A stretch of 64,000 nucleotides of DNA. Source: Pachysolen tannophilus NRRL Y-2460. Taxonomy: Eukaryota. The stretch is from the NCBI GenBank assembly GCA_001661245.1, contig KV454015.1:980924-1044923 (forward strand), given 5' to 3'. This document shows, one piece after another, positions 234 to 61,055 of this stretch (position 1 is the first letter of the stretch; every line of letters starts with the position of its first letter). The notes beneath the pieces are model-generated. The model was not told the origin of the DNA and did not search any database. It saw only the letters and a list, made by a program, of their open reading frames with translations. A program made the translations under genes and the position numbers.

Positions 234-1481
234 TTATAAGGTTAAAGGTTTATTCTTTTCTCTAGCACTTTCACCATATTTTTTAATTCTGATAGCTTGG
301 ACACTAATAAATCCTGAAGCTTCTTGTGGTTGGAATCCAGTCAATTCATCCATTGAAGATTCTGTAGCATCGTATAATTTTTCTGTTGATGATGATCTAC
401 CTAAGATTATTAAAGAACCTTTGTAAGCTCTGGCTCTAACAACACCATTGACAGTTTCTTGTGATGGTTGGATCATGCTTCTAACATATTCACATTCTGG
501 TGTAAAATACATACCATTGTATAATAATTTCGAATATGTTGGTGTAACAAAAGTATCTCTAATAGATCTAACTTCACGGTCTAACGTTAAACCTTCAATA
601 TCGATGTGGGTACCACGTAATAAAGTTAAACCAGGTGTTTCATAACAACCTCTAGACTTAATACCAATGAATCTATTTTCAACAATATCAATTCTACCAA
701 CACCATTTCTTCTAGCAATTGCATTGGCAGTCAAGAAAATATCTACTGCATCTGTTACCTCTTTACCATCTTGTAAAACCAATTTAACAGGTTTACCCTT
801 TGAAAAGACAACAGTAAAATCTTCTGGAGTATTTGGAGCATCTTGTGGATCAACTGTTAATTTCCACATATCTTTTGGAGGAGTAGTATCTGGGTCTTCC
901 AAGATACCAGCTTCAAATGAGATATGAGCCAAGTTTTCATCTGTAGACCAAGGTTTTGCCTTTGTTTGAGCAACAGGAATATTTTTAGAAGCAGCATAAT
1001 CTAACAAATCTTTTCTTCCTGCAAATCTTTCAAAAAAAATTGGATCTCTCCATGGAGCAATAACAACAACATCCGGTTTCAAAGCATAAAAGGAAAGTTC
1101 AAATCTGACTTGATCATTACCCTTACCGGTACATCCATGAGAAACAGCAAAACAACCTTCATCTTCTGCAACTTTAATTTGAGCCTCTGCAATAACAGGT
1201 CTAGCTAAAGATGTACCTAATAAGTAAACATTTTCATAAATAGCATTTACTTGAATAGCTGGAAATAATACATCTTCAACAAATTGTTTTCTAACATCAA
1301 CAACAACAAATTTGGTAGCACCAATTTTCAAAGCTTTATCTCTTGCAGCATCAAAATCTTCTTCTTGACCAATGTTGGCCATGAAAGCAATGACTTCATA
1401 ACCTTGTTCTAATAACCAAGCCAAGATAACAGAGGTATCTAAACCACCGGAATATGCTAAACAAACTTTACCCTTCGACAT
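234..1481 (-). CDS. ARG1: Argininosuccinate synthase
   Basis: LAYSGGLDTS, HGCTGKGNDQVRFE and IGIKSRGCYETPG motifs; full-length 415 aa ORF. Confidence 0.98.
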   Translation of the reverse strand: MSKGKVCLAYSGGLDTSVILAWLLEQGYEVIAFMANIGQEEDFDAARDKALKIGATKFVVVDVRKQFVEDVLFPAIQVNAIYENVYLLGTSLARPVIAEAQIKVAEDEGCFAVSHGCTGKGNDQVRFELSFYALKPDVVVIAPWRDPIFFERFAGRKDLLDYAASKNIPVAQTKAKPWSTDENLAHISFEAGILEDPDTTPPKDMWKLTVDPQDAPNTPEDFTVVFSKGKPVKLVLQDGKEVTDAVDIFLTANAIARRNGVGRIDIVENRFIGIKSRGCYETPGLTLLRGTHIDIEGLTLDREVRSIRDTFVTPTYSKLLYNGMYFTPECEYVRSMIQPSQETVNGVVRARAYKGSLIILGRSSSTEKLYDATESSMDELTGFQPQEASGFISVQAIRIKKYGESAREKNKPLTL

Positions 1482-2302: not shown

Positions 2303-3865
2303 TCATTCATTACTGATACTATTAGAATGTAACTTAACTACTTTAATCTCCGCAACATTTTTTTTACTTTGAGAGAAATCCTCGGAGAGTTCTGGAGTTT
2401 CTAAATCTTCTTGGTAGCTTGAAGAATCGTCTTGAGAGATTTCTGCTTCTTCACTAGTTTTCTTTGATGTGAGATAATAGAAAACCATCATTAACAGCCA
2501 AAGCATAATAAAACATCCAAATGCAAATGGCCAACCAATCTTCCATCTTGGTGCATTTCCACCTGTTTGGAAAACAAGTAATGGGGTCCAAATATAAGTT
2601 GAATAACCAATACTCATCATTGAACCAATGATAAATGCTCTAAATTCTCTATTTTGACTAAATTTAACATTTATCCAAGAATATAATAAAGGTGAAAGAC
2701 AACCTGTAAAACCAAAAGAATACCAAGCAACAAATTTTAAAGTATTTGAAACATCCCATACAATCATCACAATATAACCAAAAGAACAAAAAATTGAACA
2801 AACTGTAAATATACTCCATGGATGATAAATTGTAGCAAGACTTGTACCAATCCATGAACTTAATGCAGTTATAGCATAAATTCCAGATGGATAATTATTT
2901 ATCAGAGATTCACTAAACGTAACACCATTAGGAACACTTTTCAACCATAAAGCCATATATGAAATAGGAATAGACATTTGAATCATGAAAACGTAAATAG
3001 AAATACATAACCACCATTCATACCTTTTTAAACCTTTATATATGACTGTAGGTGTAATCCTAACAGGAGGTGCAGTTAATTTTCTCTCCAATGCAGTATT
3101 AATATCACTTTCTGATAATATAAGTTTAGATCTTGGACCATCTGGTAAACCTGGGAAAATCCAATATCCCAGAAACCCAACAGGTAAAGAAATAATTGCA
3201 TCAATTATGAAACCCCATGCCCATCCTGCCCTACCATCTTTCCCGTTAAGATTACTGTAAGCAGCAGTTTGAAGAACACCAGCAAATAAAGATCCTAAAG
3301 AATTACCTGTAAACCACAAACCAGCACGTTTAAATAATTCACTTTTAGTATACCATGATCCAAGTACAAAATGCGTTGCTCCAAAAACAGGGGCCTCGCA
3401 TATACCCATGAAAAATCTTATTACATACAAGTGATAAGGACTCTTTGCTTGTGATTGTAAAAGAGTCAATAACCCCCATAAAATTTCCAAAGTTGGTAAT
3501 CCATAACGAGTTATTTTAGGACGACTAAGAAGTAACAAAAGCGGCACTTGAGCAATAACGTAACCTATGAAAAACCAAGTAGTGACCCAATTTAATTGAT
3601 TTCCAACAAACCCTAAATCTTCTTCCATTCCTGTAACGTAAGCGTTAGTCAAATTTGATTGATCTAAATATTTGATAAAGAAAGTCAACATGGTCCATGG
3701 TAAAATTGTTCTATCAATTTTTTTCAACATCTTTTTCTCACTTTCACTTAAACTTGAAGGATACCAGTTGATAATATCATACAAAACAAGCCATGGCCGT
3801 CTCTGGATATATTTTCTATCATGTATAGATTTGCTATACAAATCTGATTCGGTAGTTATTGACAT
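2303..3865 (-). CDS. MFS permease, anion:cation symporter (Dal5) family, Seo1/Fen2/Liz1-like
   Basis: YLDQSNLTNAYVTGMEEDLGF, GSWYTKSELFKR and GRAGWAWGFIIDAIIS motifs; multiple hydrophobic segments. Confidence 0.9.
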   Translation of the reverse strand: MSITTESDLYSKSIHDRKYIQRRPWLVLYDIINWYPSSLSESEKKMLKKIDRTILPWTMLTFFIKYLDQSNLTNAYVTGMEEDLGFVGNQLNWVTTWFFIGYVIAQVPLLLLLSRPKITRYGLPTLEILWGLLTLLQSQAKSPYHLYVIRFFMGICEAPVFGATHFVLGSWYTKSELFKRAGLWFTGNSLGSLFAGVLQTAAYSNLNGKDGRAGWAWGFIIDAIISLPVGFLGYWIFPGLPDGPRSKLILSESDINTALERKLTAPPVRITPTVIYKGLKRYEWWLCISIYVFMIQMSIPISYMALWLKSVPNGVTFSESLINNYPSGIYAITALSSWIGTSLATIYHPWSIFTVCSIFCSFGYIVMIVWDVSNTLKFVAWYSFGFTGCLSPLLYSWINVKFSQNREFRAFIIGSMMSIGYSTYIWTPLLVFQTGGNAPRWKIGWPFAFGCFIMLWLLMMVFYYLTSKKTSEEAEISQDDSSSYQEDLETPELSEDFSQSKKNVAEIKVVKLHSNSISNE

Positions 3866-4070
3866 GATGTTTGAAGATTGAAGATAACGAACTTCTTCAT
3901 TTCTTACGACTGAAATGTAGACTTTTTATATTACAAGATTCGATAATATTTCACATGCACTCTCTTACTTTAGAAGCCTCTTTTTCACTTTGGTGAAACA
4001 AGGTTGTAAAGAAAATAAACTACACAACATATGCCACTTATTATTTCTAAATTAGATAATCTTTATTGTA

Positions 4071-4260
4071 CACAGTTTACCCCGTATATTGTATCAAGAA
4101 ATTTTTTTGATCTAGATAATAAATCAATTTAAAGATGACTTAACTAAGAATTATGCATATTGATGCAAGTTTATGCTATGTATTTATTGTGTGTGTGTAT
4201 ACATTATATTGAGTGGAAAATTTCTTTCTTGTGTAAGAGTGCTAAAAGAAACCACAGTTT
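4071..4260. promoter_or_regulatory. Two Met31/Met32-type sites in the divergent permease/dioxygenase promoter
   Basis: CACAGTTT at 4071-4078 (AAACTGTG on the minus strand) and CCACAGTTT at 4252-4260 (AAACTGTGG); a Cbf1-like TCACATG lies at 3951-3957. Confidence 0.55.
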
Positions 4261-4489
4261 TTGTTATTCCAATAATAGGCCAAACTTCAGTATCACGAAT
4301 TTAGCACGCTCCTCCATGCCAATTCACCAAATTCCAATGAACAATTTACCATCAGGGATTTCCATTATTTTGTTTGCCGAACAATTAAGCTTAAAATGTT
4401 TTCACATATAAAGTTAAAAGATTTTTCACTTTAAACTAAAAGAAAAGAAAAACCCTGTCTTACCATTCGACTATTTGAAATATTTGAAA

Positions 4490-5590
4490 ATGACGTCTCT
4501 TAATGAATTACCCCCTAGTTTATATAACCAGATCCCAGAAACTAAAGAAGATTTGGATTGGGCAGATCTAGTTACCATTGATCTTTCGTTATTTGGCACT
4601 CCAGAAGGGAAAAAACAGTTAGCACACGATTTAGAAAATGCTATTAAAGATCACGGTTTTTTTTATTTGAAAAATTTTGGGTTATCTCAAAAAGAAGTTG
4701 ATGATCAATTTGCCATTGCTCAAGCAGTATTTGCCTTGGATGTCAAAGAAAAGGAAAAATATCTAGCTGATTTAAGTTCTGGAGATTATAATAAGTTTAG
4801 ATTACCTGGTAATCGAATTGTTAACAATGGTATTAGGGATAACATTGAAACTTATAATATTGCTAGATTTAATTCTTTCTTTGATGAGCATCATAAATCT
4901 CACCCAAAAGTTATTTTGGATAATCGTAATGTGATTGAAAAATTTGCTAAATATTTACAACAAGAAGTTATTCAAAAGTTGATTGTCTTATTTGGTATTA
5001 TCTTGGAATTAGAAGATGAGGAACAATTAGCAAAACTTCATCAATATGAGGATCTTTCTGAAGAACATTTCCGTTATATGAAGTATTATAAGCGTGGCGA
5101 AGAGGAAAATAATAATTTAGATAATATTTGGAGTCATGGTCATACAGATCTTGGAACTTTAACCTTGTTATTTAGACAACCTGTTGCAGCATTACAAATT
5201 CAAAATAAATATGGAGAATGGAAATGGGTTAAACCACAACCAAATTCCATAACAGTGAACATTTGTGATACTCTTTCTTTCCTCACTGCCGGTTACTTAC
5301 CTTCAACTAAACATAGAGTTCATGCTCCTCCAAAAGATCAACAACAATATGATCGTATCGGTTTATTATATTTTGCTAGACCAAGAAATGATATCAAATT
5401 ACAAACCATTGATTCTCCAAAATTGAAAAGGTTAGGTTACACTAAAAATTTCTTTGAAGAGAAAGGTGAAGGTATTCCAAATGTTGGTGAATGGGTTGTG
5501 GCTAAACAAAAGTATTTCAATGTTAGAAAAGAAAACCACAATGATCCTCAACCAATAATCAGAGGTTACACAGAAGTTGTGATTAATTAG
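4490..5590 (+). CDS. 2-oxoglutarate/Fe(II)-dependent dioxygenase (DIOX_N + 2OG-FeII_Oxy type), 366 aa
   Basis: ATG at 4490 (the track starts at an upstream TTG); GFFYLKNFG, HTD...KHRV facial triad, and RIGLLYF. Confidence 0.9.
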   Translation: MTSLNELPPSLYNQIPETKEDLDWADLVTIDLSLFGTPEGKKQLAHDLENAIKDHGFFYLKNFGLSQKEVDDQFAIAQAVFALDVKEKEKYLADLSSGDYNKFRLPGNRIVNNGIRDNIETYNIARFNSFFDEHHKSHPKVILDNRNVIEKFAKYLQQEVIQKLIVLFGIILELEDEEQLAKLHQYEDLSEEHFRYMKYYKRGEEENNNLDNIWSHGHTDLGTLTLLFRQPVAALQIQNKYGEWKWVKPQPNSITVNICDTLSFLTAGYLPSTKHRVHAPPKDQQQYDRIGLLYFARPRNDIKLQTIDSPKLKRLGYTKNFFEEKGEGIPNVGEWVVAKQKYFNVRKENHNDPQPIIRGYTEVVIN

Positions 5591-6322
5591 AATTAGATAA
5601 AAATGTTCTTTTTTTTTATTTTTATTTTTATTTTTTGTCTTTTGTCTTTTGGCTACATCCGAATCTGCAGGTTTTAACGAGATACCGTAATTTCTTCAAC
5701 TAATTTATAGAAAGTTTTTAATTAAAAGTAATTGAAAAAGAATATACCTGGAAATATAAAGTCCGATAGAATTCATTATATATACGATAATTAATAAAAT
5801 TCAAGGCGTTTTTTTTTTTTTCTTTTTTATTTTACAAGTTAAGAGAAACTGAAGATGATCACATGGAAGACAGAAAATGGGTTAGATAGAAACAAAAAAC
5901 AAATCCAAAAATAAATTGTGTTAAAGTGTAAAAAGACTAGTAAGAGACAAAAAACAAAAACGAAAAAAAAAAGAACCTGAATAATAAAATTTTAATAAAA
6001 GATCTGAGAACTAAAATTCTATTCCAATACTATGAGAAAGCTAAGAAAATAAATAAAAATGAAAATAAAAAAAAGATGATATCAAATTCCATAATTACCA
6101 AAAACATAAACGAATTCATAGTACATTTCATTTCGTATATTGTAAATCTTCTATATTGAAGTTTCTTCTTTTCTTTTCATCTCATTTTCTGATAATTTTT
6201 AACTATCCAAATTATTTAACCAAAAGTCAATTTTTTTTTTCTTTTTTTTTTTTTTTCTTATTTTAGTTTATATATTTATTTTCTTTTATTTAAAAAAAAC
6301 ATTTAAATGTAGTTTATCCAAA

Positions 6323-7606
6323 TCAGTTTGCATAATTTTCCCATCCTGATGGTCTCTTTAAGTTATTAATGGTGAAAAATTTAGGGGTACAAGAATAACC
6401 TTTCCAAGTGAAATCATCTTGTGCTTTACACATACAATGACGTTCTTGTCTTATTTGTTGATCAATTGGACAGTTATGGAATGGAACATGGAAATATCCA
6501 ACATCGTCAAAGAAATGGATTTTATCTCTTGGTAAAAATAAAGCAGCAGCTATAGAATGAACTGGTGCATCACCCCATCTTTCATAGAAGAATCCACCAG
6601 CTTTATCCAAATATTCAAAATATTTTGTATACAGTTCACTTCTCCAAAGACTTAATGAAGCAATTTCAAAATTTGACCAAAAATGACAACCATTATAAGT
6701 TAATCCTCCATCATCTGAAATAAAATCCATCATATTATTTTCTGGTAAATATTGAGGATATTCTTTCATAAAATTTCTTGTTGTTTCCCATAAAGTTGGT
6801 ATTGTTTCTTTATATTCTGGTAATGAAATTGTAAAAGAATAAGCCTTGTTATTTTCACGCATAAATTTGAAAACATCATAATCAATATCACAATAAATAT
6901 CAATACTTGGTTCAACTCTCCAATAATATTCATATTCCATCATTAATTCATGACGCCAAAAAAATCCAGATTCATATCTACACATATGTCTATATGATAT
7001 TGAATCACCATAAATGATTTTTTTTTCTCTCATTTCTTGTCTAACTCTTGCAGCTTTTTCTGTATCAATCCATTCTGGGAATGACCATTGTTCTTTTGGA
7101 ATTAAACCATATTTAGTAGTACCTGAAACTAAAGCAGTTGTTGTTTTTTTAAATTCATCACTAAAGGGTTCATCATTTAAGAAAACCCAATCATATTTAA
7201 ATTTTCTATTAAATCTATCTTCAACTTGTCTAATAGATTTAACTAATTCCCAAAGATCTTGATTTCTTGCTAATGAAACAAAAGTAGCCTTTTCTGTACC
7301 ACCTTGGAAATTTACATTTGATCCAACAAATTCTTTTTTCAAATCTCCAGGAGTAGCTGGTGATTGAAGAGAAGAATCAGCTTTATTTTGTTGTAACAGT
7401 TCTTTCAGATCATCATTTTTTGATTCAGATTTCAGTTTTTCATCCACCGATATTCCATCTTTCGAACTTGAACTTGAACTTGAACTTGTTGATGTCAGCG
7501 GTAAAATATTAGAACCTGAACTCTTGGATAAAATATATCCACATAATATTAATGCCAAGGCAAATATTACAAACCTAAGAATACGTGTATGCGATCTAGC
7601 AACCAT
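6323..7606 (-). CDS. KTR1: Alpha-1,2-mannosyltransferase, KRE2/MNT1/KTR1 family (GT15)
   Basis: N-terminal TM anchor; [31 protein letters not shown] and [17 protein letters not shown]. Exact ortholog (KRE2 vs KTR1) is uncertain. Confidence 0.92.
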
Positions 7607-8571: not shown

Positions 8572-9462
8572 TTATTTAATAATACTATCTATAACATTAT
8601 GATTTGGTTTAAAACCTTGTTCTTCTAAAAATGTTAATATTTTAATATTTTTGGAATTTACTACAAATTCCCATAAATATTCATTATTAAAAATTGATTC
8701 AAATTCATAATGATTTTTTATTAAATATTTTGATATATTAAAATTTGAATTATTTAATGAATCAATTAATGGTATTAATGATTTTAATTTCCCCATTGGA
8801 GTATTACTTGCAGATATTAAATCTGTTATTGTTGATAATGAAGTATTAAATTTAAAAGCTTCAATTAATACTTGATCAATTTTTTCAAATTTTAAATTTC
8901 TTAATGATAAAAATTTAATTAATTTAATTTTTTCAATTGTAAATGGACCTTTTTTAAATTTTTTCGGGAAATCTAAATTTTTATTAAAACCAATTTTTTT
9001 CTCTAAATATTCTTCTTCTTCTTTAATTAAATTTAAATCTTTTATTAATAATATAATATTAAATTCTTGTGAAAATTTAAATAAAATTTCATAATTAATA
9101 AATTTATAATTTAATAATTCAATATTTAATGCAAATTCTTGATTCTTATTGTTTATACAATATATATTTGATTTAATAATTTTATTTATTAAAAAATTAT
9201 TATGTTTATTAATTACATTATGAAAATGTTTATTAACCAATGGTAAATTTGAACATTCTGAATATATAAATATCTTATGAATTAATTCAACTGGTAAAAG
9301 TTCTAATATATTATAATTAAATTTTAATGAATTTTTTTTATCCTTTACATTTCTTTGTACTCGCACTCTCACCACAGAATTTTTAGAAATAAGTTTTTCT
9401 TTAGATTTGGTTTTTGGTTTTTTCTTTAACCAAGTAGCACTTCCAGGATTTAAAAACCCCAT
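8572..9462 (-). CDS. Putative F-box-like protein, about 296 aa, extremely AT-rich
   Basis: Likely ATG at 9462 (MGFLNPG); F-box-like LELLPVELIHKIFIY...LPLVNKHF; the ORF stays open for about 890 nt despite the extreme AT content. Confidence 0.6.
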   Translation of the reverse strand: MGFLNPGSATWLKKKPKTKSKEKLISKNSVVRVRVQRNVKDKKNSLKFNYNILELLPVELIHKIFIYSECSNLPLVNKHFHNVINKHNNFLINKIIKSNIYCINNKNQEFALNIELLNYKFINYEILFKFSQEFNIILLIKDLNLIKEEEEYLEKKIGFNKNLDFPKKFKKGPFTIEKIKLIKFLSLRNLKFEKIDQVLIEAFKFNTSLSTITDLISASNTPMGKLKSLIPLIDSLNNSNFNISKYLIKNHYEFESIFNNEYLWEFVVNSKNIKILTFLEEQGFKPNHNVIDSIIK

Positions 9463-10202
9463 TAAATAAATTAATATTTTAAAATAAAAAATTAATTTGT
9501 AAAAAAAAATTGTTATATAAATGTTAAAAAAGAAAATGAAAATGAAAAAAGAAAAGTGCATTGCGCATTTGCATCTAAGTAAAGCGTACACTTAATGCGC
9601 ACTTCACTCTCTCTAAGTGCGCATTACTTTTAATCATTTTTTTACACACATTTTTATTTTATTACAATTTTTTAAATCACTATTTATTATTATTATTATT
9701 ATTATTATTGATCTACAAAAGGTTTGAGATATATATCTTAACAAGAAAGAAAAAAAAAACAACCTTACCAGGATTTGATATTTATAAAATTAATTGAAGT
9801 TTGAATGGAATTAAAATTCCCATTTCGTTAAGATTTACTTTCTCCTTTTATTATCTGTCTAATTTAATTTAATAAGAGTAATAAAATAGATGATGATCTG
9901 ACGATCTTGTTAAATGAACTCTCAATAAATTTTTGATTTCTTTTAGTATTAGACTAGAAACTTGAAATTTAGTTATTATTACTAGTCTATAAGATATCTC
10001 TTTAACAAAAATTATAAGACACAATTAAACAATAAAGAAAAAAATTTAAATCTAAATCTAAAACTAAAAATTTTCAACTATTTTTTTCATATTTTAACCT
10101 AGACGAAATGTGTGATAGCAATATCATAACATTTACATATGTAAAGAAAGAAAGATATAGCCTACTTTTTGAAAACTTTTATTTTTTTTTCTTTTTTTAT
10201 TA

Positions 10203-10539: not shown

Positions 10540-11769
10540 ATGCTAAGGTTGAATTCTGTTAGTTCTAGGATTCGGATCCTTGTATTTGCTGCATTTTTAA
10601 TAACTATTAGTTATACTTTTACTTCGATATTTTCTTCAGAAAGGTCGTCGTTGTCTTCCTCCTCATCATCAAATTCAAATTCAAATTCTCTTGGTAATAT
10701 TGTATCAAATCTGGTTAAAAATAATCAACCATTTGGGAAAAGTGGTGTTGATAATGTTGTTTCTGATACTAGTTTAACAAATTCAAATGAATATCAAAGA
10801 GAAAATGCTACTTTTGTTACATTATGTAGAAATTCTGATCTTTGGCAAATGATGAATGCAATAAAGAGAATAGAAGATAGATTTAATAGGAAATTTAAAT
10901 ATGATTGGGTTTTTTTAAATAATGAAGAATTTAGTGATCAATTTAAAAGATTAACATCATCATTAATAAGTGGTACAGCAAAATATGGAGTGATTTCATC
11001 TGATCATTGGTCATATCCAGATTTTATTGATCAAGAAAAACTGAAAAAATCAAGACAAGAAATGGAGAAAAAAGGTATTATATATGCAGGATTAGAAAGT
11101 TATAGACATATGTGTCGTTTTAATTCTGGGTTTTTTTATAAACATCCTTTAATGCTTCCATATAAATATTATTGGCGTGTTGAACCAGATATTAATATTT
11201 TTTGTGATGTTGATTATGATTTATTTAAATATATGCGTGAAAATAATAAAACTTATGGTTTTACAATTTCAATATATGAATTTAGACTGACAATTGAAAC
11301 TTTATGGTCTACTACAAAAGAATTTTTATCAAAATATCCAAAATTTGTTGCTCAAAATAATTTAATGAATTTTATTTCTGATGATAAAGGAAATGAATAT
11401 AATTTATGTCATTTTTGGTCAAATTTTGAAATTGCTGATATGGATTTTTGGCGTAGTGAAGCATATGAAAAATATTTCCAATATTTAGATAATTCTGGAG
11501 GTTTTTTTTATGAAAGATGGGGGGATGCTCCAGTACATTCTATAGCAGCTGCTCTATTTTTATCAAAAGATAAAATTCATTTCTTTGATGATGTAGGTTA
11601 TAATCATGGAGTATATTCAATGTGTCCTATTGATGAAAATTTAAGAATGGAAAAAAAATGTTATTGTGATCCAGAACAAGATTTTACATTTAGAGGATAT
11701 TCATGTGGTAAAAGATACTATGATGTTATGAATTTAAAGAAACCTGACAATTGGGAAAAATATACTTGA
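10540..11769 (+). CDS. Second KRE2/KTR family (GT15) mannosyltransferase
   Basis: Same GT15 motifs ([36 protein letters not shown]); aligns along its length with 6323-7606. Confidence 0.92.
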   Translation: MLRLNSVSSRIRILVFAAFLITISYTFTSIFSSERSSLSSSSSSNSNSNSLGNIVSNLVKNNQPFGKSGVDNVVSDTSLTNSNEYQRENATFVTLCRNSDLWQMMNAIKRIEDRFNRKFKYDWVFLNNEEFSDQFKRLTSSLISGTAKYGVISSDHWSYPDFIDQEKLKKSRQEMEKKGIIYAGLESYRHMCRFNSGFFYKHPLMLPYKYYWRVEPDINIFCDVDYDLFKYMRENNKTYGFTISIYEFRLTIETLWSTTKEFLSKYPKFVAQNNLMNFISDDKGNEYNLCHFWSNFEIADMDFWRSEAYEKYFQYLDNSGGFFYERWGDAPVHSIAAALFLSKDKIHFFDDVGYNHGVYSMCPIDENLRMEKKCYCDPEQDFTFRGYSCGKRYYDVMNLKKPDNWEKYT

Positions 11770-12110: not shown

Positions 12111-13179
12111 TTAAAATTGCAGTTGCAGTTGCTGTTGCTGTTGTTGCTGAGAACCTACACTATGAGTAGGAATTGGCTGACTATTTAAAGGATTAGTAAA
12201 CTCGTTAAACCATGGGTGTTGTAACAGTTGTCTAGCACTAATTCTCAGTTCTGGTCTCATTTGCAATAAACCTTGTAATAAATTTAACAGTAATGGATCA
12301 ATACCTGGAATTATAGATCTTAAATCTTGAGGAATAAAAACATTGAAATTATTTTTGAAATTTGGATATTGAGAAACACCTGGCCAAGTTCTTTCGTTTG
12401 GCGTCCCCATTATTCTGAAAATTTTTAATAATTGGTCATCATTCGAATTACCAGGAAACAAAGGTTTACCAGTAAACATCTCTGCTAATATACATCCAGC
12501 CGACCACATATCTATCGAAGTTGAATAATTACGCGATCCCATAAGTACATCAGGAGCACGATACCATAAAGTAACAACCTCATTACTAAAAGTGTTCACA
12601 GGTATACCAAAGGCACGCGCAAGCCCAAAATCACCAAGCTTCAATTCACCTTTATTATTAAGTAGCAAGTTTTGAGGTTTTAAATCTCTATGTAATACTC
12701 TGTTATCATGACAAAACATAATTCCTCTTAATAGCTGAAACATTAAAGATTTAACAATTTGTGGATCTAAAGCACCACTATTATTATAACCACTACTATC
12801 CATATACTGTTTCAAATCCTGATCCATATATTCAAAAACTAAAGTTAATTTGTTTTCCGTATGAATAACATCATACAAAGTAACCACATTTTCATGCTTA
12901 AGCTCTTTCATTAATGAAATTTCTCTTATCGCAGTAGATGGTGTACCTTCTTCAGAATCTAAAGAAATCTCCTTCATAGCAACAAGTTGACCAGTACCAC
13001 GGTTTCTACCTTTATAAACAGTAGCATAGGTACCTTCACCTAGTTTCTCTAACTGTTGAAATCTAAATTGAAATAAATACCAAAAAGAAGCAAGATAGAC
13101 GTGTTAGCTATTATACTTAAAACCCAAAAATTTGATATAATATTTATATATTTTAAAATACTCACTGAGAGGATGACAT
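12111..13179 (-). CDS. PHO85: Cyclin-dependent kinase Pho85; exons 13179-13166 and 13062-12111 (321 aa)
   Basis: Spliced N-terminus [33 protein letters not shown]; intron 13165-13063 with GTGAGT donor, AGCTAAC branch and TAG acceptor. Confidence 0.96.
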
Positions 13180-22330: not shown

Positions 22331-23494
22331 TCATTTTGGGTTGTTTCTCTTAATTTCTTCCAAGACTTGGTCCAAAAGTTTGGGGTACCAGATTCTACTT
22401 ACATCCTGATGGCTCTTTATTCTGTTCAACAATACAAACCAACCAATAGGTTTATCAACTTGTTCATTGGGTGAGAACTGAAACCCAATTTCACCACGAC
22501 GATATTTCAGCCAGATTCTATCTCTTTCATCTCTTTCCTTTAGCAATTTCTCTGGAACTTTTAGCAGTGTCTTATAAGAACTAATATCGATTGTTTGGAA
22601 AAGAGGAATAGATAATCGATCACCTTCACCGGGACCTGGGGTAAGGACTCTATGAATTGTACTTTTACAAACACCTTGAGTTATAGCTTCTAAAGTTTGA
22701 CCCACTGCAACCACTAAGGTGTCCTGTAAAGGTGGAACTTTTATCCATTCACCTGTATAACTTTCAACTTCCAATGAAGTATGATCTGTTGGTTGGAAAA
22801 TATAAGTAATGAAATCAGAATCTCTATGTTCACCAACTCCTTGATTGGTTTGAACTTTTGCCGTTTTATCTGATAATTTTTCTTTGATTATATCGTTTTT
22901 CAAATTAGGGTCAAGTTTATTAAAATCTGGATATTTTATAATCTTAAGTTTAACTTGTTGTCTTGGTTTTTGGAAAAATTTATCAAAAGAACCTTTTGGT
23001 AATTCTAAACTTTCTTCAATCAAATTAATAAACCATATACTAAAATCTGACATGCTATTCATATAATTTTCGAAAACAGGTCTAAATTTTGGAACTAATG
23101 AAGAATCTGGCCATAAATTTGGACCTTCAATATTTTTCCATAATTCATCATCATTTTGAACAACAGGTTCAGAAAGTTCCGTTGCTAAATCTATTTGTTC
23201 TCTCCAATCAACATTTCCAGCAGTAATCTCGTTTCCTAATTTTGTATAACCCAAGAAATGTTTTGATTTAGTCATTTCAACTTTCAATTTTTCTTCAAGT
23301 GGTAAATTGAAAAACTCATTAGATTCATTAACAACATCTCCAAAAAGCAGATTATCAACAGGAATATTCTTGACATAGAAAAACCCAATATCTAATAAAA
23401 ACTTCTTCAAATCCAGCAAAAAAATCGGTTTCGTAGAATCCGCAAAGGCTAAATTTAAATCTAATATCGGTAGTAAATCAGAACTAATTGACAT
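22331..23494 (-). CDS. 2OG/Fe(II) dioxygenase, isopenicillin N synthase-like superfamily
   Basis: LPILDL, GFFYVKN, DWREQID, GPNLWP, HRD...IHRV and RLSIPLF (R-x-S). Confidence 0.9.
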   Translation of the reverse strand: MSISSDLLPILDLNLAFADSTKPIFLLDLKKFLLDIGFFYVKNIPVDNLLFGDVVNESNEFFNLPLEEKLKVEMTKSKHFLGYTKLGNEITAGNVDWREQIDLATELSEPVVQNDDELWKNIEGPNLWPDSSLVPKFRPVFENYMNSMSDFSIWFINLIEESLELPKGSFDKFFQKPRQQVKLKIIKYPDFNKLDPNLKNDIIKEKLSDKTAKVQTNQGVGEHRDSDFITYIFQPTDHTSLEVESYTGEWIKVPPLQDTLVVAVGQTLEAITQGVCKSTIHRVLTPGPGEGDRLSIPLFQTIDISSYKTLLKVPEKLLKERDERDRIWLKYRRGEIGFQFSPNEQVDKPIGWFVLLNRIKSHQDVSRIWYPKLLDQVLEEIKRNNPK

Positions 23495-23752
23495 ATTTGA
23501 ACAACAAAATCTTCCAAGTTTTTAATTAAAAACTAACAAAATTACAATTAATCAATCATGTCATGCTACTCTACCTATCTTTATATATAGTAGAAACAAT
23601 TCACTCTCTCTCTCACTGTGGACCTTTTCTTTCATCTTATCATCATTGCGTAATAATTGATGACACCTTGAAATCGCCCCAATACAACATAATAACCCAA
23701 AGAAGCCATCAAATAAATAATAACTAATTAATTATACATATATTTATATAAT

Positions 23753-23787
<35 letters not shown>

Positions 23788-23821
23788 CTTGATAAATAGT
23801 GAAGTAATATTGTGATAAAGA

Positions 23822-24571
23822 ATGATGTCTCAGGGAGATCAGCTATTGCAGCAATTAAGACAGTATGATGAATTAAAACAGCAGAATAATAATAATAGTA
23901 CTTATAGTTTTTTCCAGCAACAGCCTCAAGCAATTGGTCATTATATACCCAACCAACATAATCCAATCCAAAATGATGAAAGGTCTGATGATGACTATAA
24001 GAAAATAGATAATGAAGAAGTTCAGGGGAAAATAGATGTGCAATATACTTCTTTGAAGATTTTGAATAATAAACCTAAATATGTACCACCAATTAATTTT
24101 GCTCTTGTTGAAGATGGAATATATAGATCAGGACATCCACAACCTATAAATTTCCCGTTTTTATCAAATTTGAAACTTAAGACTATAATATATTTAGGAG
24201 ATAAAGAAGATAATTATGATTATTATAAGTGGATAAAGCAACAAGGAATTCATTTCCATTATTTAAAAATGGAAACTTCAGTTGCTCCTTTAATATTTAA
24301 TGATCCAGAAGTAATAAAAGCTGCGTTAAACTTGATAATAAATATCGAGAATTATCCAATATTGATTCACTCGAATAAGGGGAAACATAGAATAGGTGTC
24401 TTAGTAGGTGTTATGAGGAAATTACTACAAGGATGGTGTTTGAGTGGAACATTTGATGAATATGATAAATTTTCCGGAGGAAAAGGTGAAGGTGATTTGG
24501 AATTTATTGAAATGTTTGAAACACCATTACAAATTGATGATTCAAAGAAACCGGGGTTTGTAAGATTATAG
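23822..24571 (+). CDS. OCA2: Oca2 pseudophosphatase (Siw14/Oca family)
   Basis: PPINF, IYRSGHP, LKTIIYLGDK and YPILIHSNKGKHRIG (catalytic Cys replaced by Ser), RKLLQGW. Confidence 0.85.
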   Translation: MMSQGDQLLQQLRQYDELKQQNNNNSTYSFFQQQPQAIGHYIPNQHNPIQNDERSDDDYKKIDNEEVQGKIDVQYTSLKILNNKPKYVPPINFALVEDGIYRSGHPQPINFPFLSNLKLKTIIYLGDKEDNYDYYKWIKQQGIHFHYLKMETSVAPLIFNDPEVIKAALNLIINIENYPILIHSNKGKHRIGVLVGVMRKLLQGWCLSGTFDEYDKFSGGKGEGDLEFIEMFETPLQIDDSKKPGFVRL

Positions 24572-60952: not shown

Positions 60953-61055
60953 CTGTATCAACTACAATAAATTCTTACACGTGAATAATAAAATATATGC
61001 ATATACAAGCCAATTATTTTTAGATTAAGACATTAAAATCTCTTCATATAAATAA

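Follow-up and report, generated by a model that had tools for sequence, protein, structure and literature searches.

The architecture of a fungal sulfur module made of a permease and an oxygenase is already known; what differs in the case described here is the branch of the oxygenase. In Neurospora crassa, according to the accessible part of PMC8550094, the targets of CYS-3 include permease and TauD-dioxygenase genes with consecutive locus numbers (e.g., suc-2 NCU07819 with mfs-29 NCU07820, and tdo-4 NCU07610 with NCU07609). Jlp1 is the only verified sulfonate-desulfurising enzyme in fungi, and jlp1 deletants still grow on sulfonates (PMC5857272, in the text available). In Candida albicans, the Met32 targets given in the available parts of PMC13170222 include the permeases Seo1 and Seo13, the latter being needed for growth on glutathione, and an uncharacterised ‘2-OG-Fe(II) oxygenase’, CR_04500C/orf19.541, which is bound by Met32, has a log2 fold change (FC) of 5.0 on methionine/cysteine starvation and, in the supplement of that paper, carries the CGD description Isp7-like. 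Its Candida parapsilosis orthologue, CPAR2_104530, is entered in the PMC11502921 supplement with a logFC of 4.6, a value of 0.03 in the DUAL column (taken to be the met4/met28 double mutant) and the motif-table position +902. Since orf19.541 and CPAR2_104530 are induced by sulfur starvation, oxygenases of the IPNS-like type are already part of the yeast sulfur regulon at the transcript level. Here we analyse a stretch of 64,000 nucleotides from Pachysolen tannophilus NRRL Y-2460 (contig KV454015.1, positions 980,924 to 1,044,923; hereafter the window), in which an MFS permease gene and a DIOX_N-type oxygenase gene stand head-to-head across a shared promoter, and argue that the two might form a sulfur-scavenging unit of another lineage.

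A first-pass annotation, made from the letters alone, had taken the two genes for an import-plus-oxidation unit, in which a Seo1/Fen2-like permease and a sulfur-poor oxygenase of no assigned function diverge from a promoter of about 620 bp with Met31/Met32 and Cbf1-like elements. Both open reading frames were found where it had placed them, and the distance between their start codons is 624 bp:

2303-3865, minus strand: MFS permease of 520 amino acids (open reading frame and Pfam)
3866-4489, no strand: shared divergent promoter of 624 bp (direct reading)
4490-5590, plus strand: oxygenase of 366 amino acids with DIOX_N and 2OG-FeII_Oxy domains (open reading frame and Pfam)

The pair is without introns in this window, which is AT-rich (28.8% GC). 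The stored permease protein differs from the standard-code translation solely at three CTG codons (232, 321 and 457), each giving alanine in place of leucine, so the source is a budding yeast that reads CUG as alanine, and translation table 26 was applied after this had been recognised. An open reading frame of 82 amino acids (4163-4411, plus strand) lies within the promoter and overlaps the Met32-type site described below; its openness is its sole support and it was taken as spurious.

The shared promoter carries the following elements:

4248-4262, minus strand: strong Met31/Met32-type site, AAAAACTGTGGTTTC, matching MAAAACTGTGGYKBH at 15 of 15 positions
4071-4078, minus strand: Met31/32-like site, the weaker one, with T after AAACTGTG; 206 bp upstream of the permease ATG
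3951-3957, plus strand: TCACATG, at chance level and no credible Cbf1 site

The 15-mer is the MEME motif of C. parapsilosis sulfur-responsive promoters (PMC11502921, accessible part), and AAAAACTGTGGTTTC is the sole zero-mismatch match to this C. parapsilosis consensus in the 64 kb, against 0.01 expected, whereas at up to two mismatches the window holds 11 matches against 7.9 expected, i.e., no excess. The site is 228 bp away from the ATG of the oxygenase and 383 bp from that of the permease, upstream of both, has both the CTGTGG core and the extended form AAACTGTGG of a Met31/32 site and, in our own reading, is also compatible with the C. albicans Met32 ChEC-seq motif RBTGTGGYKB (PMC13170222, accessible part). 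The other site is the weaker because it reads AAACTGTGT, without the GG core. AAACTGTG itself occurs at 4071-4078 and 4253-4260, on the minus strand in both cases, and nowhere else in the 64 kb (2.55 expected per window), both copies falling inside the promoter; the Poisson chance that a given stretch of 624 bp holds at least two is about 3e-4, a post hoc figure for a region that the first-pass annotation had preselected. AACTGTG is found twice in the promoter, against 0.06 expected from its density in the window. The proposed Met31/32 element is thereby borne out by a consensus Met32-type site. Its proposed Cbf1-like companion is not supported, since TCACATG is no more frequent than chance would have it (8 times in the window, with 7.36 expected) and the canonical CACGTG is absent from the promoter, its only match in the window being at 60978. 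In the available part of PMC11502921 the Cbf1 site TCACGTG pertains to class 1 and class 2 genes only, and by its motifs the promoter would be in keeping with class 3 of that paper, the Met32-only genes. TATAAA stands at 4407 (plus strand) and TTTATA, which is TATAAA on the minus strand, at 3925, each 60-85 bp upstream of the ATG of its own gene.

A second feature that bears on sulfur is the composition of the oxygenase. Apart from its start codon, the enzyme has a single methionine (M197, in RYMK) and a single cysteine (C259, in NICD), just as first counted, which amounts to 0.55% Met+Cys and makes it the second lowest of the 32 open reading frames of the window (2.67% when pooled). This low content extends over the whole orthogroup and not to distant paralogues. 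The best homologues (49-69% identical, n = 120) have a median of 0.82% and a maximum of 2.2%; full-length relatives at 40-50% identity (n = 12) have a median of 1.6%; and paralogues below 40% (n = 38) one of 2.6%, with two of the 38 at or below 0.82%. The more distant relatives are 50 representatives of at least 300 amino acids out of 150 listed, shorter fragments being excluded, and the difference between the orthogroup and the paralogues gives p = 7e-14 in a Mann-Whitney test that is not corrected for shared ancestry. The sulfur residues that are left occupy conserved positions, with M197 present in 30 of 30 homologues and C259 in 26. The simplest reading of such composition would be long-standing selection for low sulfur cost in this orthogroup. 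Within one superfamily there is a gradient of Met+Cys, from 0.8% in this orthogroup through 1.9% in the known Met32-target orthogroup to 2.6% in the other paralogues, and sulfur-poor composition offers a cheap computational marker for proteins made in sulfur starvation.

Relatives of the pair were sought in a collection of 5.8 billion proteins. Each protein has one close relative only (69% identical for the oxygenase, 66% for the permease), and the next ones, at 42-56%, belong to Pezizomycotina and Basidiomycota; between the yeast and filamentous fungi the oxygenase keeps 50-56% identity. Four Pezizomycotina have the two genes under adjacent numbers:

Penicillium taxi: oxygenase N7495_004310, permease N7495_004311 (adjacent locus tags)
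P. expansum: oxygenase KAJ5498192, permease KAJ5498191 (adjacent accessions)
Xylariaceae sp. FL0016: oxygenase KAI1335467, permease KAI1335466 (adjacent accessions)
Anthostomella pinea: oxygenase Uu.00g145680, permease Uu.00g145690 (adjacent locus tags)

In the close yeast relative, members of the oxygenase cluster and of the permease cluster are found on contigs of the same two lengths, 11791 bp and 5975 bp; we infer that contigs of matching length are the same contigs, in which case the pair would be adjacent there as well. At the DNA level, JGI metagenome contigs were scanned with the permease alignment, which gave 68 loci, and all of these were searched with the oxygenase by tblastn. The orthogroup oxygenase turned up at four of the 68 (L002, L004, L005 and L006), the last three of which are probably one organism in three samples, because they give identical scores. 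At all four it lies directly upstream of the permease on the opposite strand, i.e., head-to-head, and the start codons are 640 bp apart in L002 and 694 bp in L004 by direct reading. None of the paralogue-level permease loci (at most 42% identity) among the 68 has the oxygenase, and, where the permease is orthologue-like, three contigs (L001, L009 and L021) are too short on the relevant side to judge. Fistulina hepatica, the sole Basidiomycota species in both match lists, has the two genes on contigs of different length, where adjacency is not shown. The permease and the oxygenase are thus a genuine conserved unit, whose head-to-head arrangement recurs in filamentous fungi. The genes around it are as follows:

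This window: argininosuccinate synthase (ARG1; 234-1481, minus strand) and a KTR-type mannosyltransferase (6323-7606, minus strand), both from open reading frame and Pfam
L002: Fig1 and NLR-type genes
L004: secretory lipase and RCC1/BTB protein

No further conserved neighbour of the pair was seen across these three contexts and, since the flanks differ in each, what is conserved is two genes and their shared promoter only.

Pfam confirms that the enzyme is of the DIOX_N type, unlike TauD/Jlp1, as the first reading had it. DIOX_N (PF14226) matches at 2.8e-16 (60.7 bits, cut-off 27.3) and 2OG-FeII_Oxy (PF03171) at 2.6e-14 (53.8 bits, cut-off 23), while the TauD domain PF02668 gives no match at E ≤ 0.001, leaving the enzyme outside the TauD/TfdA (Jlp1) family. 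In an alignment of 30 homologues, with a mean column identity of 62% across Dikarya, the iron triad H218, D220 and H275 (HxD...H) is invariant, as are R289 and G291, and the Ser position of the RxS motif is a Gly (RxG) in every one of the 30; the same position is Ser in the two printed PDB alignments (DRLSFPFF and PRYSTPFF). An AlphaFold model built on this alignment (pLDDT 89) has 309 structural matches in PDB at E ≤ 0.001, all those listed being of the 2-oxoglutarate (2OG)/IPNS type, and is predicted to have the double-stranded beta-helix fold. At their top stands N. crassa thymine-7-hydroxylase (PDB 5c3p; TM-score 0.72-0.81, 20% identity), and further good matches are IPNS, 2OG oxygenases of plants and fungi, and a Caulobacter protein that is itself uncharacterised. 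The searches turned up no close relative that has been characterised, PDB yielding by sequence nothing better than a match at E 1e-15, in agreement with the lack of an assigned function noted at the outset. Going by its sequence and model, the oxygenase would be of the Fe(II)/2OG type, in the IPNS-like (DIOX_N) branch; the predicted fold and metal site are clear, and they do not indicate the substrate.

The permease matches MFS_1 at 5.5e-29. One relative stands at 66% identity, and the closest with species names are from Pezizomycotina and Basidiomycota, at 42-49%. JGI and NCBI label the relatives as of the ACS/pantothenate-transporter type (‘ACS family pantothenate transporter-like’, ‘Seo1’, ‘liz1’), and the placement in ACS/Dal5 comes from these source names and the MFS_1 match only. 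The nearest budding-yeast relatives found are SEO1-labelled proteins, at 30-33% identity, and in the permease tree the SEO1 clade is separated from the protein by a branch with starred support of 100 and a length of 1.79, which together rule out that this permease is an orthologue of SEO1. The label Seo1/Fen2-like therefore holds in as far as the protein is a related MFS permease, and fails if SEO1 or FEN2 itself is meant; its sequence places it in a separate subgroup of such permeases, distinct from SEO1. Look-ups in the Protein Atlas gave nothing beyond the known family labels. The same resource holds a cluster of 118 ascomycete proteins in which an MFS domain like that of this permease is joined to a flavin monooxygenase of the FMO-like type; the fusions may be real, or else the gene models of another pair of permease and oxygenase may have been merged.

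Phylogenies of both proteins were built by the ‘quick’ method, with SH-aLRT support only (55 rows for the permease, 51 for the oxygenase). In the permease tree, the yeast protein and its closest relative form a pair with starred support of 100 on a stem of 1.14; the fork that they share with Atractiella and a clade of 26 Pezizomycotina rows (98, starred) is unresolved. In the oxygenase tree, the yeast pair (100, starred; stem 0.74) is part of an unresolved three-way fork, whose other branches are a Basidiomycota-dominated clade and a Pezizomycotina clade holding all four adjacency cases, each with starred support of 100. The two gene trees are concordant: in each, the yeast sequences branch off deeply as a lineage apart, nested in no sampled group. 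Horizontal transfer was considered, since all species-named close relatives are from Pezizomycotina or Basidiomycota; a donor inside the sampled crown groups is not supported, as the yeast clade lies outside the starred clades of both in both trees, with the proviso that these are quick trees and the yeast stems are long. The trees fit descent of the pair from the ancestor of budding yeasts and filamentous ascomycetes, with loss in nearly all budding yeasts, and they fit an old transfer from an unsampled donor. Elsewhere in the oxygenase tree, three Pezizomycotina rows (P0040, P0077 and P0081; Thelonectria, Microdochium and Bisporella) form a group with starred support of 100 within the Tremellomycete part of the Basidiomycota clade, for which an old paralogue, or transfer from one phylum to the other, could account.

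The window has a second gene of this architecture, which allows the oxygenase of the pair to be set against the known Met32 target:

22331-23494, minus strand: second DIOX_N/2OG-FeII_Oxy gene, 387 amino acids, 1.04% Met+Cys (open reading frame and Pfam)

Its product is 47% identical to C. albicans CR_04500C/orf19.541 over the full length (E 9e-113) and is, by sequence, the orthologue of that protein. The oxygenase of the pair, at 25% identity to CR_04500C (E 3e-12) against these 47%, is not a member of the orf19.541/Isp7-like orthogroup. The promoter of the second gene (23495-23821, 327 bp) has one CTGTGG core, within CACTGTGGAC at 23616-23621, and lacks the extended motif. No permease adjoins this gene in the window, its neighbours being a CHL4-like gene and one of the tyrosine phosphatase family (23822-24571). 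A long (AT)n/(TATA)n microsatellite at 23720-23790 lies just upstream of the latter.

Taken together, we would give a probability of about one half to the interpretation that the pair is a Met32-controlled unit importing and oxidising an anionic organosulfur substrate that is not yet known. This sulfur-scavenging interpretation is well motivated, because three independent lines lead to it: the Met32 site, the orthogroup-specific sparing of sulfur and the precedent in Candida. Of the import-plus-oxidation unit first proposed, the two-gene unit, the Met32-type site and the sulfur-poor DIOX_N enzyme have stood, and the Cbf1 element and the identity with SEO1 have not. Regulation by sulfur, the direction of transport, the sulfur in the substrate and the chemistry are what we infer, and the course of events might be as follows. 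When sulfur is limiting, Met32 would recruit Met4 to the site at 4248-4262, possibly aided by the weaker one at 4071-4078, and both genes would be switched on from one divergent promoter of about 620-700 bp. The permease would bring in an anionic organosulfur compound, and the oxygenase would oxidise it, so that its sulfur could enter assimilation. The oxygenase, stripped of its dispensable methionines and cysteines, would be cheap to make just when sulfur is scarce. The two-gene unit is self-contained and evolutionarily old, and it is hard to refrain from a wider and more doubtful proposal, which we put forward tentatively: that it is an ancient sulfur-scavenging cassette based on a class of enzyme for which no link with the release of sulfur is known, an RxG IPNS-like oxygenase with a dedicated permease for an unknown anionic organosulfur compound. 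Such a cassette would be at least as old as the split of budding yeasts from filamentous ascomycetes, and would have been kept, or regained by transfer, in one small budding-yeast lineage, there under the zinc-finger Met32 rather than the bZIP CYS-3/MetR of moulds. If this is true, the family-wide purge of methionine and cysteine would be among the clearest cases of sulfur sparing in eukaryotes outside S. cerevisiae.

Several observations weigh against the sulfur-scavenging interpretation. The permease is not sulfur-poor (3.7% Met+Cys, with a family median of 4.0%), and an orthologue-like permease stands without the oxygenase at L034 (56% identity, 4.7 kb of upstream sequence) and L064 (49%). 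A full Met32 match is found at one site of the promoter only, the 4071-4078 site being without the GG core and a Cbf1 site being absent. In the filamentous fungi, the exact CYS-3 consensus ATGRYRYCAT is absent from the promoters of L002 and L004, and ATBRCGCCATC is not enriched in either (21 against 19.4 expected and 15 against 17.1, respectively); the intergenic region of L004 does hold two CGCCATC cores, from a total of five in 13.9 kb, where 1.8 would be expected, which is only suggestive. Use of 2OG as cosubstrate is not certain, because the usual Ser of RxS is an invariant Gly in this oxygenase. The sulfur-starvation text of PMC8550094 (N. crassa) names no DIOX_N enzyme in its available part, nor does the T. 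reesei table of methionine-repressed genes in the part available, the presence of the pair being established in neither species. Apart from these points, the supplements of PMC8550094, as far as available, have no entry for such enzymes, and those of PMC6695392 a TauD entry only. The literature searched, of limited coverage, has no mention of orf19.541 or An12g09490/09480/09500, so the pair may still be described, and what it covers on Cryptococcus Cys3/sulfur, equally limited, has no mention of flavonol synthase. As an observation apart, related MFS permease genes do have exact CYS-3 sites (ATGRYRYCAT) at 250-390 bp upstream, in L034 (4341-4350) and in L010/L011/L012 (about 5620-5767), which would fit with frequent sulfur control of such permeases.

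Some of these points would be expected if the pair imported and oxidised a nutrient free of sulfur, such as a nitrogen source, a vitamin precursor or an organic acid, the Met32-like site being fortuitous or secondary. The lack of CYS-3 motif enrichment in L002 and L004 is one of them, and three more observations speak for such a nutrient, the first and last of them also being against sulfur scavenging: the relatives of the permease bear automatic names as pantothenate or vitamin H transporters; the best structural match of the oxygenase, N. crassa thymine-7-hydroxylase, works in the salvage of a nutrient, a pyrimidine; and the DIOX_N-type genes isp7 and SPCC1494.01 of S. pombe, of the same broad family by annotation only, are induced by nitrogen limitation (PMC4614384, in the table available). 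This similarity to thymine-7-hydroxylase, however, is at the fold level only (20% identity), and a perfect 15-mer with 0.01 expected per 64 kb sits in precisely this promoter. Of motifs for rival nutrient controls, the 624 bp contain neither GATAAG nor the Gcn4 core TGACTC, and GATAA, with 4 occurrences where 3.0 are expected, shows no enrichment. Since a sulfur-free substrate would also leave the orthogroup-specific loss of methionine and cysteine without explanation, we regard it as rather unlikely, if deserving of attention.

The two remaining explanations appear improbable to us, and about equally so. The oxygenase could be a regulator or sensor like S. pombe Isp7, reportedly such an oxygenase, and govern uptake by the neighbouring permease by modifying a protein or a small signal on which this uptake depends. 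The Isp7-like description of orf19.541 and the strong conservation of the orthogroup, suggestive of one fixed partner or substrate, would agree with this; but identity between the enzyme of the pair and the orf19.541 group is no more than 25%, and the sparing of sulfur suggests an abundant protein, which is atypical for a regulator. Otherwise, the pair could serve no nutritional end and deal with an anion that is toxic or xenobiotic, or with a secondary metabolite of fungi or plants, which would be taken up or expelled and inactivated by oxidation. DIOX_N enzymes often tailor secondary metabolites, the PDB matches include TropC, SpoC, UcsF, T6ODM and HSL1, the L002 pair lies beside NLR-type genes, and the genomic context varies by locus. 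Still, other biosynthetic or cluster genes are missing from the three contexts seen, the 50-56% identity from yeast to filamentous fungi is atypical of enzymes that tailor secondary metabolites, and neither the Met32 motif nor the sparing of sulfur would be explained.

Three other features of the window lie apart from the pair. The mannosyltransferase gene at 6323-7606 (minus strand) is one of two Glyco_transf_15 (KTR/KRE2-type alpha-1,2-mannosyltransferase) paralogues, the other, at 10540-11769 (plus strand), being separated from it by 3 kb. An open reading frame without Pfam match (8572-9561) lies between them. The protein-kinase open reading frame at 12111-12977 (minus strand) matches the Pkinase profile only from profile position 30 on, starting at its own residue 2, and probably has a short first exon and an intron upstream, the called ATG probably not being the true start.

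With regard to the known systems, the resemblance of the oxygenase to N. crassa thymine-7-hydroxylase extends to the double-stranded beta-helix with an N-terminal DIOX_N domain, and to a possible place in fungal nutrient salvage; the differences are their low identity, the lack of pyrimidine-related genes near the pair, and RxG instead of RxS. SEO1 and Seo13 are MFS permeases like that of the pair, which is no orthologue of theirs. With orf19.541 and CPAR2_104530 the oxygenase shares the DIOX_N plus 2OG-FeII_Oxy architecture and, in the case of orf19.541, a rather low Met+Cys (1.3% for the C. albicans protein and 1.9% as the median of the orthogroup of that protein), but it belongs to another orthogroup, and the orf19.541 counterpart in the window has no adjoining permease. 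The TauD/Jlp1 modules, i.e., S. cerevisiae SOA1/JLP1, C. albicans SOA1/JLP11/12 and the N. crassa pairs, likewise consist of an MFS permease and an oxygenase of the Fe(II)/2OG type. They are under Met32 or CYS-3 (PMC8550094 and PMC13170222, accessible parts), whereas for the pair it is the motif alone that points to such regulation; its enzyme is DIOX_N/IPNS-like (PF14226 and PF03171) and not TauD (PF02668). Little has been mapped of how fungi use organic sulfur, and a second, unrelated oxygenase family with its own permease and a putative place in the sulfur regulon makes a concrete candidate for the missing activities. What this locus appears to add to the systems described so far is a second IPNS-like lineage, more sulfur-poor than the first and linked to a permease, whose motif suggests that it, too, is regulated by sulfur.

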